Assembly (NCBI GenBank): GCA_021778815.1
Contig: JAJYBW010000002.1
Location: 1 to 25,825, forward strand
Direction of reading: 5' to 3'
Length of the DNA stretch: 25,825 bases
Origin: Acidobacteriota bacterium
Lineage (GTDB): Bacteria; Acidobacteriota; Terriglobia; Terriglobales; Acidobacteriaceae
Below the pieces are notes generated by a model. The model was not told the origin of the DNA and searched no databases. It saw only the letters and a list, made by a program, of their open reading frames with translations. Below are positions 2,435-20,808 of the stretch, one piece after another; the stretch's first letter is position 1; the number at the start of each line of letters is the position of its first letter. The position numbers and the translations under genes were made by a program.

Positions 2435-2448
2435 GAAAGAATGGTCGG
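2435..2448 (+). repeat. Left attachment-site core (14-bp direct repeat GAAAGAATGGTCGG)
   Basis: Exact match to 20725-20738, which spans the CCA end of tRNA-Pro. Followed by a degenerate T-arm mimic (GATTTTAGAACCTC versus GATTTGAACCTC in the tRNA). Confidence 0.8.
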
Positions 2449-2560
2449 CCCTAGTGGAAGATTTTAGAACCTCTCGTGCACTCGATGGCGAGAATATCGA
2501 CATTTACTTTACCGCTTCCGGGGATTCTTTTCACCGGTGAAACTTTCGATGATATTCCGC

Positions 2561-2900
2561 TTAGACAACCGGCCAATCTAATTGCCGCATCGTCCTCGCA
2601 CTCAGCTTCCCGACCCTGGAAGACTGAAGTTGCAGCCGATCATTCAGCCACGCCATCGATTCCGGAGTAAGATCCATAGCCGGTTTTTGCATGTAAGCAG
2701 TCCTGGGATTAGATTCTCGCCAGCGAGCTTGCGCCTCTTGGTGGACGCCAAGGAGAGCGCCCCCAATTCGTTCATCATTTGATTAAGCGACACGCCGTCG
2801 TCGAGTCGCCCTCCCAATGAACTCCGCGTCCTCCACTCTTATGTAATGAGGCCACGACTTCTTCCAATTGCCTCTATTGAAGCCTCCGTTGAACTGTCGC
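2561..2900 (-). pseudogene. Frameshifted C-terminal remnant of an unidentified gene (from memory, resembles the tail of PLD-like nuclease proteins)
   Basis: Protein-like blocks in three frames: NWKKSWPHYIRVEDAEFIG / RLDDGVSLNQMMNELGALSLASTKR / NPRTAYMQKPAMDLTPESMAWLNDRLQ...DWPVV* (stop 2561-2563). The family call is unverified recall and the upstream boundary is approximate. Confidence 0.4.
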
Positions 2901-2982
2901 AAGAATATTCAATCGGGTGTTCCGAAAGACAGCGAACGGTGCCTAATAGACTAACCGCAAACAAACCTCGGGTCAGCGCGAA

Positions 2983-3308
2983 ATGTTAGAAATTTTGAAG
3001 GAGATAGGATACGTCGCATTAGCTATATTCGGAGCAAGTTGGATAGTGGTTTGGATCAATGTCTTCGCCAGAGCTATGTTAGTCCAGTGGTTGAATAAGC
3101 GAGAAAAAAACAAGCCCACGAAGAGGCGGTCGATAGAGTTCTGCAAGACCATTTTTCCCAAGATGAAATTGACTGGATTGTCCGCGATGGAAAGAGAAAG
3201 CAAACCGGTGGGATTCTGGCCGCCTTTGCTTCGATCACCGCTAAGCATGTGAACAAGTGGGATGAATGGGCCGAACGTGATGTGGACTACTATACTGGAT
3301 CGTTTTAG
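2983..3308 (+). pseudogene. Hypothetical N-terminally membrane-anchored protein, probably frameshifted at an A7 run
   Basis: MLEILKEIGYVALAIFGASWIVVWINVFARAMLVQWL (one TM helix) up to A7 at 3104-3110. A second frame continues KQAHEEAVDRVLQDHFSQDEIDWIVRDG...DYYTGSF* to 3308. Confidence 0.35.
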
Positions 3309-3356
3309 ACTTTGCTCCCAAGGAGTACCCGGAGACATTTCCCCGGATATTTACGC

Positions 3357-18156: not shown

Positions 18157-18279
18157 ATGAACATGCGTACGATGTTTCTGGCTTCGCTGATTTTCTCCGG
18201 TTGCCGCCTCTGTGCCACCACTCGGTTACAGGCCCCGAACGGTTCGATACGCTTGGATGTGAACATCGGGAGATTTCTA
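18157..18279 (+). pseudogene. 5' stub of a secreted protein (possibly GH97-like N-terminus), truncated
   Basis: GGAGG RBS then MNMRTMFLASLIFSGCRLCA|TTRLQAPNGSIRLDVNIGRF; interrupted at the IS630 target TA. The GH97 resemblance (LxSPDG...) is weak. Confidence 0.45.
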
Positions 18280-19305
18280 GAGCAGTTTCTGAAATAGCGT
18301 AGACTCATCCTGGCGAGACTCTGCGGCGAGTGAATCGATGGCGAAGCCATATGGGGATGATTTGCGCCGTAAGTTTCTGTTTGCTTACGATCAGGGCGAG
18401 GAGACGCTGGAGGAACTTGCGGATCGCTTCCTGGTAAGCGTGGGCTGGGCGAAGAAGATTTCCGCGCAACGGAAGCGCACCGGACAAGCTGAGCGGGTGC
18501 CGCATCGGCCCGGACGTAAATTGCGGGCCGGAACCGAGGCACAGCGTCAGGTGATGGATTGGGTGGCATCGAAGCCCGATCTGACGCTGGCCCAACTACA
18601 GGCCAGGTTGTACAGCGAGGCTGGCGTTTCGCTCAGTTTGGGGCGGATCTGGCATCTGTTGAAGAAGCTGGGGCTGCGGCTGAAAAAAAGTCACTCCACG
18701 CAGTCGAGCGGGACACCGAGGCCAACCTCAAGCGTCGTGAAGAGTTCGTTGCGCGCATCCAGTCGATCCCGCCGGAGCGGCTGATTTTTCTGGACGAGAG
18801 CGGCATCACTACCTCAATGACGCGGCTCTACGCGCGCGGCACGGGAGGCAAACGCATTCATGAGGCGACCCCTGGCGGACACTGGAAAATCATGACGATT
18901 CTGGGCGCCATGAGCCTGAACGGCATGGTCGCAACCATGACCATCGAAGAGCCCACCGACAGGGACATCTTTCTGGCCTACGTCGAACATCTGCTGGTCC
19001 CGGTCCTGAGGCCCGGCGACGTGGTGGTCATGGACAACCTCAGTGCGCACAAGGCACCTGCGGTTCGCACATGGATCGAACAAGCCGGTGCCGAGCTGCT
19101 CTATCTCCCGCCCTATTCTCCCGATCTGAACCCTATCGAGAAGGCTTGGGCAAAACTCAAACAACTGCTTCGCACCGCCAAGGCACGAACGAAAGAAACC
19201 CTCGATCAGGCCATCGCTGATGCTCTGCCATGCATCACGCCCGCCAATGCACAAGCTTGGTTCAGACTCCCCATCAACGGTTTTACAGTAAAACAGAAAA
19301 TGCTC
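18280..19305 (+). mobile_element. IS630-family insertion sequence (~1.03 kb), inserted at CTAG with TA duplication
   Basis: TA at 18278-79 and 19306-07. Terminal inverted repeats TAGAGCAGTTTCTG (18278-18291) and CAGAAAATGCTCTA (19294-19307) match at 13/14. Confidence 0.92.
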
Positions 19306-19308
19306 TAG
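18338..19308 (+). CDS. IS630 transposase, HTH and DDE ORFs joined by a -1 frameshift at A7G (18683-18690), ~323 aa fused
   Basis: ORF A ends RLKK; the -1 frame continues [42 protein letters not shown] (D-D-E triad). Confidence 0.92.
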
Positions 19309-19312
19309 CTGC

Positions 19313-20797
19313 ATGAAAACCGCCATTATCTACACCAGGGTTTCTAGCCGTGAGCAGCAACAGGAGGGTTTCTCACTTGGAGCCCAGGCCAAACTGTTGC
19401 GGGAGTACGCGGAACGGAATGGATTCCAGATCATCAAGGCATTCGAAGACGTCGAGACCGCTAAGGCATCGGGGAGAACGCAGTTTTCCGAAATGGTCGT
19501 TTGGTTCCGACGGACCAAGTCATGCCGCATTCTTCTTGTCGAGAAGACTGATCGGCTTTACCGGAACCTTCGGGACGCGGTAACGCTTGAAGACCTGGAT
19601 ATTGAGACCCATCTCGTGAAGGAGGGCCAGATCATCTCGAAAGAGGCGAAGTCCCAGGCGAAACTCATCCACGGAATCAACCTCGTCCTGGCGCGAAACT
19701 ACTCCGAGAATCTCCGAGAAGAGGTCAAAAAGGGTATGCGAGAAAAGTGTGCCCAAGGGATCTATCCAGGCCACGCACCGTTCGGTTACCGCAATAATAA
19801 GGCCAACCGGACCATTGAAGTCGATCCCGACGATTCGCCAATGGTCTCGCGTCTGATGGAACAGTATGCAACCGGCGCTCACACTCTTTCCACCCTCAAA
19901 AAGATGCTGAAGGATGAGTATGGCAAGAACATGAGCCGGAACAACATTCACAAAGTACTCACTAACCGGTTCTACATCGGTGAATTTGCATGGGGTGGCG
20001 AAACGCACCCCGGGTCGCATCTGCTCTTCATCTCTCCCCAGCTTTTTGATGAGGTGCAGGCAGTTCTCTCCGGGCATAATCGCCCCAAATACTCCAAGCA
20101 CGAGACTGCTTTTCGCGGCCTGATGAACTGTGCTCATGATGGCTGTATGTTGACTTGCGAACTGAAGAAGAAATATGTCTACTACCGGTGCACTGGCAAT
20201 CGCGGCAAGTGCGACCTCCCGCGCTTCAAAGAAGAGGAATTGTCGCAGAGGTTGGGAGAACCCTTGAAGGATCTGCAGATTCCGCGGGAGATCGTGGACC
20301 AGATCGTGGCCACTTTGCGCGAAGATCAGACCCAAGCTAAGGGGAAATTGAAGGCAGAGCAAACCCGGCTGGAGTCGCGGCTCACTGCGATCCGCAATCG
20401 CATGGACGCGGCTTACGTCGACAAGCTGGATGGCAAGATTCCGGAAGACTTCTGGCAACGAAAGACGAGCGAGTGGCAGATCGAAGAGCACCAGGTGAAA
20501 TTGGCAATCGATGGACTCGCCAGTGCCGAAATCGGCGAAAGAGCAATGGACACGCAGCGAGTGTTGGAACTCGCGAATAAGGCCGATTTACTGTACCTTA
20601 CGCAGAGTTCTGCTGAAAAGGCCAAACTGCTCAGAATGCTGTGTTGGAACTTTTCTGTAGACGGGGCAAGCGCAATGCCTGCATACAGATATCCCTTTGA
20701 TCTGATCTTCGAAAGGGCCAAATTGAAAGAATGGTCGGGGAGAGAGGATTTGAACCTCCGACCCCCTGGTCCCGAACCAGGTGCTCTACCAGGCTGA
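19313..20797 (+). CDS. Large serine recombinase (resolvase + recombinase + zinc-ribbon + coiled coil); C-terminus encoded by the antisense strand of tRNA-Pro
   Basis: IYTRVSSREQ (catalytic Ser), FEDVETA, LLVEKTDRLYRN, APFGYRN, CAHDGC..YYRC..NRGKC; ends EWSGREDLNLRPPGPEPGALPG*. Confidence 0.96.
   Translation: MKTAIIYTRVSSREQQQEGFSLGAQAKLLREYAERNGFQIIKAFEDVETAKASGRTQFSEMVVWFRRTKSCRILLVEKTDRLYRNLRDAVTLEDLDIETHLVKEGQIISKEAKSQAKLIHGINLVLARNYSENLREEVKKGMREKCAQGIYPGHAPFGYRNNKANRTIEVDPDDSPMVSRLMEQYATGAHTLSTLKKMLKDEYGKNMSRNNIHKVLTNRFYIGEFAWGGETHPGSHLLFISPQLFDEVQAVLSGHNRPKYSKHETAFRGLMNCAHDGCMLTCELKKKYVYYRCTGNRGKCDLPRFKEEELSQRLGEPLKDLQIPREIVDQIVATLREDQTQAKGKLKAEQTRLESRLTAIRNRMDAAYVDKLDGKIPEDFWQRKTSEWQIEEHQVKLAIDGLASAEIGERAMDTQRVLELANKADLLYLTQSSAEKAKLLRMLCWNFSVDGASAMPAYRYPFDLIFERAKLKEWSGREDLNLRPPGPEPGALPG
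20725..20738 (+). repeat. Right attachment-site core (14-bp direct repeat)
   Basis: GAAAGAATGGTCGG, identical to 2435-2448; overlaps the last 7 nt of tRNA-Pro. Confidence 0.8.
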
Positions 20798-20808
20798 GCC
20801 ACTCCCCG
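20732..20808 (-). tRNA. trnP: tRNA-Pro, anticodon CGG
   Basis: 77 nt CGGGGAGTGGCTCAGCCTGGTAGAGCACCTGGTTCGGGACCAGGGGGTCGGAGGTTCAAATCCTCTCTCCCCGACCA; C1:G72, A73, anticodon loop TTCGGGA, GTTCAAATC T-loop, encoded CCA. Confidence 0.98.

Follow-up and report, generated by a model that had tools for sequence, protein, structure and literature searches.

A genomic island at a tRNA-Pro gene in an Acidobacteriota genome, with a large serine recombinase whose attachment site spans the end of its own gene

Introduction

Serine integrases are the principal tools for inserting DNA in one direction only, and textbooks assign tRNA genes to tyrosine integrases. Bxb1, phiC31, Listeria A118/LI, TP901-1 and SPbeta SprA share with the recombinase described here the domain order, i.e., a resolvase catalytic domain, a recombinase domain and a zinc ribbon with, putatively here, long helices. 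The large serine integrases of phages and ICEs likewise use short att sites with few identical bases, and their P′ likewise contains the B′ motif 3–5 bp further from the core. However, the present family differs from them in that it targets tRNA genes at their 3′ tip, where the invariant Trp codon TGG is the antisense of CCA, places attP inside the integrase ORF, and forms P-core-P′ joints in tandem arrays. Literature searches outside subscription journals returned no paper on serine integrases that target tRNA genes or on an attP within a serine integrase gene, and a search of a large LSR survey gave no occurrence of “tRNA” (PMC10083194).

For tyrosine recombinases there is a precedent, which the original prediction had named and which is indeed in the literature: the attP of Myxophage Mx8 lies within the integrase coding sequence beside a tRNA gene, and integration supplies the gene with another 3′ end (PMC6070905; Tojo 1996, cited by PMC4383910). 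As in Mx8, the attP core of the present island is inside the recombinase ORF and integration alters the C-terminus. However, Mx8 IntP/IntX is a tyrosine recombinase of unrelated mechanism, and its altered activity was shown by experiment, whereas the present family is known from sequence and the conserved part of its tail does not exceed the DNA site in length. The integrase gene of SSV-type fuselloviruses also crosses attP and is split on integration into a tRNA gene (PMC4383910, PMC8371274). These archaeal-virus tyrosine recombinases have their gene cut mid-way and inactivated, whereas in the present family only the extreme C-terminus is swapped. In the mycobacteriophages BPs and Brujita, attP is located in the coding 3′ end of the repressor gene, and the tail of the free form is a degradation tag (integration-dependent immunity). 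The likeness lies in an attP within a coding 3′ end and a protein C-terminus that changes on integration; the difference is that the repressor is affected there and the recombinase here, and that the free-form tails of the present family have no common ending.

Boundaries of the Island

The window, i.e., the whole stretch of 25,825 nucleotides analyzed here, derives from a 73%-complete MAG. Its features at and around the island ends are:

2149–2415, + strand: flank “F” to the left of the island; remnant of the 3′ end of a decayed tyrosine-integrase gene, which in relatives adjoins tRNA-Pro(CGG)
2435–2448, no strand: attL core, left copy of the 14-nt repeat; its TGGTCGG (2442–2448) is common to all attL/attR pairs of the family
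2449–2540, + strand: P′ arm of attP (~2449–2474); when joined, extends the recombinase frame as ALVEDFRT... to TGA at 2538–2540
19313–20797, + strand: gene of the large serine recombinase, 494 aa in its integrated form; last 22 codons antisense to the tRNA
20703–20731, + strand: P arm of attP, inside the conserved coding end ..DLIFERAKLKE
20725–20738, no strand: attR core, right copy of the repeat; likely crossover region TGGTCGG at 20732–20738
20732–20808, − strand: tRNA-Pro(CGG), intact; 3′ end CCGACCA regenerated by the island core; T-arm is the B′ arm

The island occupies 2449–20738 (18,290 bp) at the 3′ tip of the tRNA-Pro(CGG) gene. Re-reading of the sequence bore out the antisense tRNA-Pro(CGG) and the two identical 14-mers, GAAAGAATGGTCGG at 2435–2448 and 20725–20738; the window contains no other direct repeat of 14 nt that is exact. 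By chance alone, 25.8 kb should contain about 1.5 exact 14-mer pairs, and one direct and three inverted pairs are observed; the significance of the repeat therefore rests on its position and on independent evidence, i.e., empty sites and natural joints. In at least two congeners, G015 and G001, the left flank, the 14-mer and the tRNA are contiguous and match the reconstructed attB, as expected of relatives without exactly this interval, and coordinates suggest the same arrangement in five more (G024, G016, G006, G010, and G005). In a further relative, G013, this tRNA carries a 15.8-kb island with other cargo and the same ends. The interval 2449–20738 is thereby confirmed as a true insertion and as an integrative genomic island with a carbohydrate-uptake and catabolism cluster.

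It is conceivable that the 14-mer is a chance repeat and that the interval was delivered otherwise, e.g., by the tyrosine integrase whose remnant adjoins the left end, a reading for which the expected number of 14-mer pairs and the position of the remnant might be cited. The 55-aa ORF at 2248–2415 corresponds to the C-terminal end of a 482-aa gene that lies intact beside the tRNA in G005 (Pfam Phage_integrase PF00589, 4.6e-9); the remnant alone gave no match in the Pfam search. However, this intact G005 gene directly abuts the tRNA, which implies that the island was inserted between the two. In addition, the empty sites end exactly at the 14-mer, and the P′ sequence (2449 onward) recurs beside TGGTCGG at ~190 sites, and also contiguously after recombinase 3′ ends. 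Chance repetition with another mode of delivery is thus most unlikely. The untranslated end of the tyrosine-integrase remnant is the source of the B arm of attB for the serine integrase. Empty sites, the sister island and the joints described below agree with the predicted 18.3-kb tRNA-Pro island, bounded at 2435/2449 and 20738 and integrated by a large serine recombinase. Insertion by this serine recombinase, with attP across the end of its gene, is very probably the explanation of the locus.

The Recombinase

The integrated 494-aa form ends in KEWSGREDLNLRPPGPEPGALPG*, and joining 20738 to 2449 yields 505 aa ending in KEWSALVEDFRTSRALDGENIDIYFTASGDSFHR with TGA at 2538–2540; both predicted frames were re-derived from the sequence, and with them the prediction that attP spans the 3′ end of the gene and that integrated and joined forms have different C-termini. 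Pfam assigns Resolvase (PF00239, 1.3e-19, residues 4–149), Recombinase (PF07508, 1e-9, residues 172–253) and Zn_ribbon_recom (PF13408, 4.2e-6, residues 267–312), i.e., domains of serine recombinases alone and not the catalytic fold of tyrosine recombinases. Within YTRVSSREQ, the motif of the serine nucleophile, Y7, R9, S11, S12, and R13 are invariant in 34 homologues. Of the cysteines in ..NCAHDGC.. and ..YYRCTGNRGKC.., which we infer to be the motifs of the zinc-ribbon domain, C273, C294, and C301 show no variation and C278 almost none. An AlphaFold2 model of the homologue P0048, of moderate quality overall, contains long helices at 326–373 and 379–405 (pLDDT ~90 for 351–400, overall mean 69, pTM 0.32), which may correspond to the coiled-coil motif that large serine integrases have within the zinc-ribbon domain.

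Attachment Sites and the Crossover Region

Seven attL/attR pairs, from islands of 2.9–18.3 kb, all share TGGTCGG, with 0–7 nt of extra identity on its left. The resulting identity block of 7–14 nt is a small common core as in serine integrases, unlike the long tRNA-fragment repeat that is typical of tyrosine-integrase islands. Since TGGTCGG is all that the seven pairs share, the crossover is placed inside the CCGACCA end of the tRNA, its last 7 nt. Exchange is predicted to fall within AATGGTCGG, and any exact crossover dinucleotide named there would be putative.

A dyad formed only in the joined sequence had been predicted, and its arms, ATCTTCGAAAGGGCC (20705–20719) and GGCCCTAGTGGAAGAT (2447–2462), are present as described. 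Its proposed centre at 20728–20729, just outside the CCA end, did not hold, given that the shared identity is TGGTCGG at 20732–20738. Across the family, the dyad symmetry is weak and the left arms are poorly symmetric; an ungapped symmetry scan of ten attP and seven attB sites gave no unique centre (best fractions 0.33–0.42, at several positions). A crossover centre at the GG of TGG was considered as well and dropped, since the scan yields several positions.

The P′ arm resembles the T-arm of the tRNA (B′) with an outward shift of 3–5 nt. For the T-arm of the window's own tRNA, the alignment comprises 14 matches out of 15 with a 2-nt gap, which was matched by 1 of 2000 shuffles. Outward displacement of the outer motif is the attP-vs-attB geometry that Rutherford and colleagues reportedly described in 2013 as expected for serine integrases.

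In the mechanism that we propose, the P arm would be formed by the last ~10 conserved recombinase codons (..IFERAKxxEW), and the core TGG TCG G by the Trp codon, antisense of the tRNA CCA, together with the discriminator and acceptor end. The P′ arm would correspond to the next 9–11 codons (ALxDDFRTF), whose DNA mimics the T-arm displaced 3–5 bp outward. Recombination inside the core would both rebuild the tRNA and cause the recombinase gene to read on into the antisense tRNA.

A Family of tRNA-Associated Recombinases and Their Natural Joints

The recombinase is a member of a large Acidobacterial family: 4240 homologues were found, and 102 of the best 120 end in W-S-G-R tails that are antisense to a tRNA. 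Among 17 genome loci examined, 13 adjoin a complete tRNA gene convergently, namely Pro (CGG, GGG, UGG), Arg (CCG) or Ser (CGA), and a Nitrospirales homologue, 38–44% identical, adjoins a Gln (CUG) tRNA. The layout is real and occurs commonly among Acidobacteria. These serine integrases, a large natural family, appear to recognize the universal CCA end together with the T-arm of tRNA genes, and the target appears to change among Pro, Arg, Ser, and Gln tRNA genes while the core remains the same. The family therefore represents a natural series in which to study how target specificity is encoded and re-targeted.

Contiguous P-core-P′ sequences occur naturally. The P0048 locus reads GAAGAATGGTCGGCCCTAGTGGACGATTTTCGAAC, a direct joint of right end and left end, and L035, a fossil of the window's island type, contains window positions 20635–20735 followed directly by 2437–2505 and 2555–2868 (81–90% identity). 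Fourteen more pattern matches were found on metagenome contigs, eight of them with a recombinase fragment next to the joint; these 14 contigs showed no terminal overlaps of the kind that would mark circular contigs. Most of these 14 are array joints accompanied by short recombinase remnants. The contiguous joints as a whole are mostly situated in chromosomal tandem arrays, which means that they prove the joint and not a free circular form. The array joints point to repeated use of occupied sites, and attR may stay a usable target, which would explain the pile-up of islands at these tRNA genes.

Exchange of the C-Terminus: By-Product or Switch

The tail of the free form had been predicted to recur in homologues, and it does so, as WSALV(D/E)DFRT, in P0048 and at the ~190 P′ sites. 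It was further proposed that directionality may differ between the two isoforms or that they may stand in for a recombination directionality factor (RDF), which large serine integrases need for excision. Such a built-in switch, in which the free and the integrated form would differ in activity, directionality or stability and partly replace an RDF, has several points to its credit. The first 9–11 tail residues (ALxDDFRTF) are conserved, with the P′ block recurring in 61 sites in one scan and, in a second scan covering 86 genomes, in most of ~135 pattern matches. The pattern behind the 61 sites permitted variation at third codon positions alone, which renders its period-3 signal circular; in the second scan, which is unbiased, common changes are still mostly synonymous, including those at first codon positions (Leu CTR/TTR, Arg CGA/AGA). 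Moreover, no RDF candidate common to the islands was found, as the small ORFs beside the P0048 recombinase and the 43-aa ORF near the left end of the window's island are not shared, and Mx8 IntP/IntX offers a tyrosine-integrase precedent (PMC6070905).

However, conservation is confined to these 9–11 residues and coincides exactly with the P′ DNA half-site, the mimic of the T-arm. Within the block, one codon is free to vary (A, E, V, G), and the codons for Ala and Leu are also found changed, to Gly and Arg. Past the block, the open stretch of the recombinase frame averages 14.7 codons, compared to 25–35 in the other two frames, and 3 of the 61 sites stop at once. Integrated tails consist of 6 to more than 60 arbitrary residues, whose sequence and length are set by the tRNA, and the AlphaFold2 model of a free-form homologue is of low confidence across the last 60 residues. 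Free-form tails end variably and lack a common -AA ending, in disagreement with an ssrA-like degradation tag. Because the conserved stretch equals the P′ half-site and the frame then closes sooner than the other two, the tail swap is read as a by-product: judged from sequence, it would probably be a passive consequence of the position of attP. A switch that substitutes for an RDF is improbable on the same analysis, and the part of the proposal concerning isoforms of different directionality found no support. It is similarly doubtful that the free form, ..EWSALxDDFRTF.., would be the only one able to integrate, or sufficiently short-lived to do so, with the tRNA-tailed form inactive until excision is triggered. 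If this self-contained switch were real, the family could work without a dedicated RDF.

The layout also places a DNA stretch under double duty, as a protein end and, by prediction, as a protein-binding att half-site. Since attP is written into the recombinase gene, hundreds of “recombinase” proteins in databases carry meaningless C-termini derived from tRNA genes. As a separate observation, the 3′ end of the integrated-form mRNA is also antisense to an abundant tRNA.

Present Mobility

Directly upstream of the recombinase gene lies:

18277–19308, + strand: IS630-like insertion sequence with 15-nt terminal inverted repeats and HTH and DDE_3 ORFs

Its inverted repeats are located at 18277–18291 and 19294–19308, and its ORFs match DDE_3 (7e-37) and HTH_33 in Pfam. 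The element stops 4 nt short of the recombinase ATG and has moved the former upstream sequence, which contains GGGAG, 1 kb away. With the element lying between the gene and what formerly stood upstream, this copy of the recombinase is probably poorly expressed.

The island might accordingly be a fixed, immobile fossil, cut off from the expression signals of its recombinase, whose layout records a past integration. Neither a circle junction nor this strain's empty site was detected in the Logan contigs of four metagenome runs containing the sequence, and many copies in the family are decayed: the one on contig 12 of G013 lacks residues 1–124, and several loci retain only short 3′ remnants. However, the reading frame is uninterrupted and retains the catalytic and zinc-ribbon residues. 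Insertion sequences can supply outward promoter activity, and this one may do so for the recombinase. Furthermore, contig breaks in two runs, X2 and X3, coincide exactly with the attL boundary: a contig starts at 2419 (its first 30-mer ends at 2448) and another ends at 2449, a hint that fits alternative occupancy in the population. Immobility falls somewhat short of an even chance, and the element may be active at present.

Genes Inside the Island

Between the left end and the insertion sequence, the island contains:

2564–2692, − strand: 43-aa ORF near the left end; restricted to the nearest relatives of the island, with tblastn 79–88% identity in G015 (L028/L074) and L035 only
3312–4030, + strand: frameshifted hsdM remnant, type I restriction-modification methylase, in two overlapping frames
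4330–5469, − strand: 379-aa protein with a hydrophobic N-terminus
5769–6779, + strand: LacI-family regulator (cargo)
7064–10783, + strand: TonB-dependent-receptor-like outer-membrane protein, CarboxypepD_reg and OMP beta-barrel (cargo)
10787–12205, + strand: TPR-repeat protein (cargo)
12223–13833, + strand: fucose-isomerase-like protein (cargo); weak match, below Pfam cut-offs
13871–15460, + strand: FGGY-family sugar kinase (cargo)
15457–16785, + strand: MFS sugar transporter (cargo)
16900–18066, + strand: DUF2961 protein (cargo)

The 43-aa ORF has no Pfam match, and the hsdM remnant matches HsdM_N (7.6e-9) and N6_Mtase (7.1e-20). Promoter and terminator scans around both island ends gave nothing above chance. 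The family moves cargo such as sugar-utilization clusters between strains of soil Acidobacteria; its cargo blocks in Acidobacteria measure 3–18 kb and reach up to ~43 kb in one array. A 66-aa basic ORF overlaps the start of the recombinase gene in the 2.9-kb G515 element.

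Insertion Boundaries and Empty Sites

The 18,290-bp island (2449-20738) is situated at a tRNA-Pro(CGG) gene, in a window that represents an entire contig from a MAG of 73% completeness and whose sequence occurs in mine-drainage metagenomes. The features that frame the analysis are:

20732-20808, minus strand, tRNA-Pro(CGG), the one tRNA found by ARAGORN
19313-20797, large serine recombinase (LSR) ORF of 494 aa that contains the domains Resolvase, Recombinase and Zn_ribbon_recom
18277-19308, IS630-like element with 15-nt inverted repeats, HTH and DDE_3 ORFs
Right flank, the core genes purL and purF

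The 14-mer predicted to bound the island reads GAAAGAATGGTCGG at 2435-2448 (attL core) and 20725-20738 (attR core), and is the sole exact 14-nt direct repeat in the whole window. Because about 1.5 14-mer pairs are expected by chance per 25.8 kb, and three inverted 14-mers are also present in the whole window, weight was placed on the position of the repeat and on outside evidence; alone, the repeat carries no significance. Congeners that lack the island, as called for by the original prediction, were found: in the genomes G015 and G001, the sequence is contiguous across the end of the left flank (F, 2149-2415, outside the island), the 14-mer and the tRNA, leaving the final ~90-260 bp of the left flank uninterrupted up to the tRNA, and both empty sites match the attB reconstructed from the window. 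The same empty arrangement is indicated by coordinates alone in G024, G016, G006, G010, and G005. At this tRNA, a further genome, G013, has a 15.8-kb island whose P' end is the same, whose recombinase is related and whose cargo is unrelated. By comparison with these genomes, the interval is a real insertion with the boundaries 2449 and 20738.

No island joints were found in contigs from four metagenome runs. In the runs X2 and X3, one contig begins at 2419, its first 30-mer ending exactly at 2448, and in X3 a flank-variant contig terminates at 2449; together, these ends suggest, as a hint only, a branch at the attL boundary. Within the island, a frameshifted remnant of hsdM (type I methylase, 3312-4030) has a high metagenome contig depth that reflects its conservation in other organisms. 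The IS630-like element, with TA at both ends, ends 4 nt upstream of the recombinase ATG and interrupts a short upstream ORF, the stop of which would overlap this ATG.

Attachment Sites and Crossover Position

As predicted, the recombinase reads through the core into the tRNA gene: its C-terminus is KEWSGREDLNLRPPGPEPGALPG, the final 22 codons being antisense to the tRNA, and when 20738 is fused to 2449, the reading frame continues to a TGA at 2538-2540 and spans 505 aa. Of the two arms that flank the core in attP, P lies within the conserved codons ..IFERAK..EW and P' within the joined frame, and thus both are coding sequence doubling as a putative binding site. The P' block, TGGTCGG-CCCTAG-xx-GACGATTTT[C/A]GAACTTT, is conserved to +32, where conservation is abruptly lost. 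In the window, the P' segment GAAGATTTTAGAACCTC agrees with the T-arm of the window's own tRNA (GAGGATTT--GAACCTC) in 14/15 positions, which was equalled by 1/2000 shuffles, and this T-arm-like copy sits 3-5 nt farther out from the core than the T-arm itself. For serine integrases, such an outward displacement is a known feature by which attP half-sites differ from attB half-sites.

TGGTCGG is common to attL and attR of seven two-ended islands (2.9-18.3 kb), and attL/attR identity extends for 0-7 nt to the left of this heptamer. Since the heptamer is shared by all seven pairs, and since, among 61 attL sites, roughly one in five lacks the AA found just before TGG in attP, these alignments place the exchange within or directly beside the terminal CCGACCA of the tRNA (20732-20738), and AATGGTCGG is the stretch taken to include the central crossover dinucleotide. 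A crossover at 20728-20729, near which the dyad of the original prediction is centred, is contradicted by this shared identity block. Both arms of that dyad were found where they had been predicted, and the dyad is perfect in the window, but its arms are just partly retained in relatives; a symmetry scan of the att sites returned no unique centre.

Recombinase Family and tRNA Targets

A protein search returned 4240 homologues, and tail classes were scored on the best 120 of these. Among these closest homologues, W-S-G-R... tails, which correspond to antisense tRNA, prevail (102/120), followed by a WS[QKH]YL tail (8/120) and the P' tail (1/120). P0074, P0080, P0093, P0097, P0102, P0111, P0114, P0117, and L110 cover a subgroup with EEWS[QKH]YLW.. 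endings and one ending in EEWYTLQDDFRTL.., with the core TGGTAC. Both types of ending probably represent joined forms, from subfamilies whose cores or targets differ.

At 13/17 family genome loci examined, a complete, convergent tRNA gene adjoins the recombinase, the targets being Pro(CGG), Pro(GGG), Pro(UGG), Arg(CCG), and Ser(CGA), and a Nitrospirales homologue (38-44% identity across two alignments) adjoins Gln(CUG). GAA TGG forms the junction at every tRNA locus examined, including the Nitrospirales one; the Trp codon (TGG), the antisense of CCA, is invariant in the recombinase alignment. Of 401 family genomes, 86 contain P' sites, defined by TGGTCGG with the P' block after it, and about 10% contain intact recombinases. 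Candidate carriers among cultured strains are Edaphobacter modestus DSM 18101, Tunturiibacter gelidiferens M8UP28, T. empetritectus M8UP27, Granulicella mallensis X5P3, and G. paludicola DSM 22464. A minimal family member of 2.9 kb lies at tRNA-Pro(CGG) in G515 (contig 16, locus L118, reverse strand, about 39211-42208) and contains P', ORFs of 229 and 149 aa, and a basic ORF of 66 aa (..ERRSEIARKAAVTRW..), the end of which shares 4 nt with the start of the recombinase gene and which could possibly encode an accessory protein or RDF.

Exchange of the C-Terminal Tail

The original prediction was that the tail swap may alter directionality or stability of the recombinase, possibly replacing an RDF, and that homologues would share the tail. 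The motif ALxDDFRTF is indeed kept, but it is exactly the P' site and extends no farther. Two features of this block speak for constraint at the level of translation: the frequent first-position polymorphisms are synonymous (Leu CTR/TTR, Arg CGA/AGA), and variation in the D-D-F codons is greater at third positions than at the first two, the initial scan pattern having permitted third-position variation only. A larger number of observations argue against a functional tail. One codon is free to vary (A, E, V, G), and changes to Gly and Arg are also seen at the Ala and Leu codons. Past the block, the recombinase frame closes at a mean of 14.7 codons, compared to 25-35 in other frames, and stops immediately at 3/61 sites. 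Integrated tails range from 6 to >60 residues, and AlphaFold2 models the final 60 residues of the free form with low confidence. A role of the exchanged tail as a switch appears improbable on this evidence, and the swap is most likely a by-product.

Joints and Tandem Arrays

The right-to-left joint exists as contiguous DNA elsewhere. The homologue P0048 (506 aa, 68% identity) has the C-terminus EEWSALVDDFRTF..., and its locus DNA, GAAGAATGGTCGGCCCTAGTGGACGATTTTCGAAC, is the counterpart of the right end of the window island fused to the left end. In another MAG, locus L035 matches 20635-20735 and, in direct continuation, 2437-2505 and 2555-2868, with 81-90% identity; the core is mutated, and of the recombinase gene the final ~100 nt alone survive. 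This locus is a fossil joint of exactly the window's island type. A metagenome scan yielded 14 further P-core-P' matches, in 8 of which a recombinase fragment adjoins the joint; none of the 14 joint-bearing metagenome contigs is circular. In G013 contig 11, the order runs from attL (144087) through 17.4 kb of island to a P-core-P' joint at a decayed recombinase (126651), and from there through 43.5 kb of island to an intact recombinase (81638) and tRNA-Pro(UGG). Judged by this arrangement, the contiguous joints are junctions of chromosomal tandem arrays, not free circles, and it is therefore the connectivity of the ends that they prove.

Tandem arrays were seen in G013 contig 11 (81638-144087), L122, L124, L126, L130, and L132; in these, the core marks the junction between the leftover 3' part of an older recombinase gene and the P' end of an island that arrived later. 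Several genomes have 2-3 P' sites spaced 0.1-3 kb. The arrays suggest that an occupied site (attR) can be used by incoming elements, whereas reuse of an occupied attR is not expected of canonical serine integrases.

Relation to Known Integrases and History of the Left Flank

According to its domains and site architecture, the window recombinase is a large serine integrase; it stands out by targeting a tRNA gene, by an attP within its own ORF, by T-arm mimicry, and by array joints. A search of a large LSR survey (PMC10083194) gave no occurrence of “tRNA”. Precedents for attP inside int are described for Mx8 (PMC6070905; PMC4383910) and SSV viruses (PMC4383910; PMC8371274), but these integrases belong to the tyrosine family, whereas the one studied here is a serine integrase.

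F itself derives from a tyrosine-integrase gene, of which it is the decayed 3' end, and the attB left arm of the serine integrase falls within the end of this older element. G005 (L138, 1498-2943) has an intact 482-aa gene (Pfam Phage_integrase), directly adjoining tRNA-Pro(CGG) in convergent orientation, and therefore two unrelated integrase families use the same tRNA tip. F is duplicated in G015 and G001 (L029), with copies 5-8 kb apart; in G015 (contig 9, L028; 6967-7351 and 15513-15764), the distal copy has a degenerate attL (1-nt deletion) and P', and the proximal copy a pristine attB beside the tRNA. It looks as if islands of both kinds, with tyrosine and with serine integrases, had piled up here one after another. 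On the minus strand of the left flank, an ArsR-family regulator (1312-1602) and a 173-aa ORF (1697-2215) are encoded, the latter resembling, by eye, a Cas3 HD-domain fragment, with no Pfam match. The region left of F is mosaic, since 900-2170 of the window is found elsewhere in relatives' genomes.
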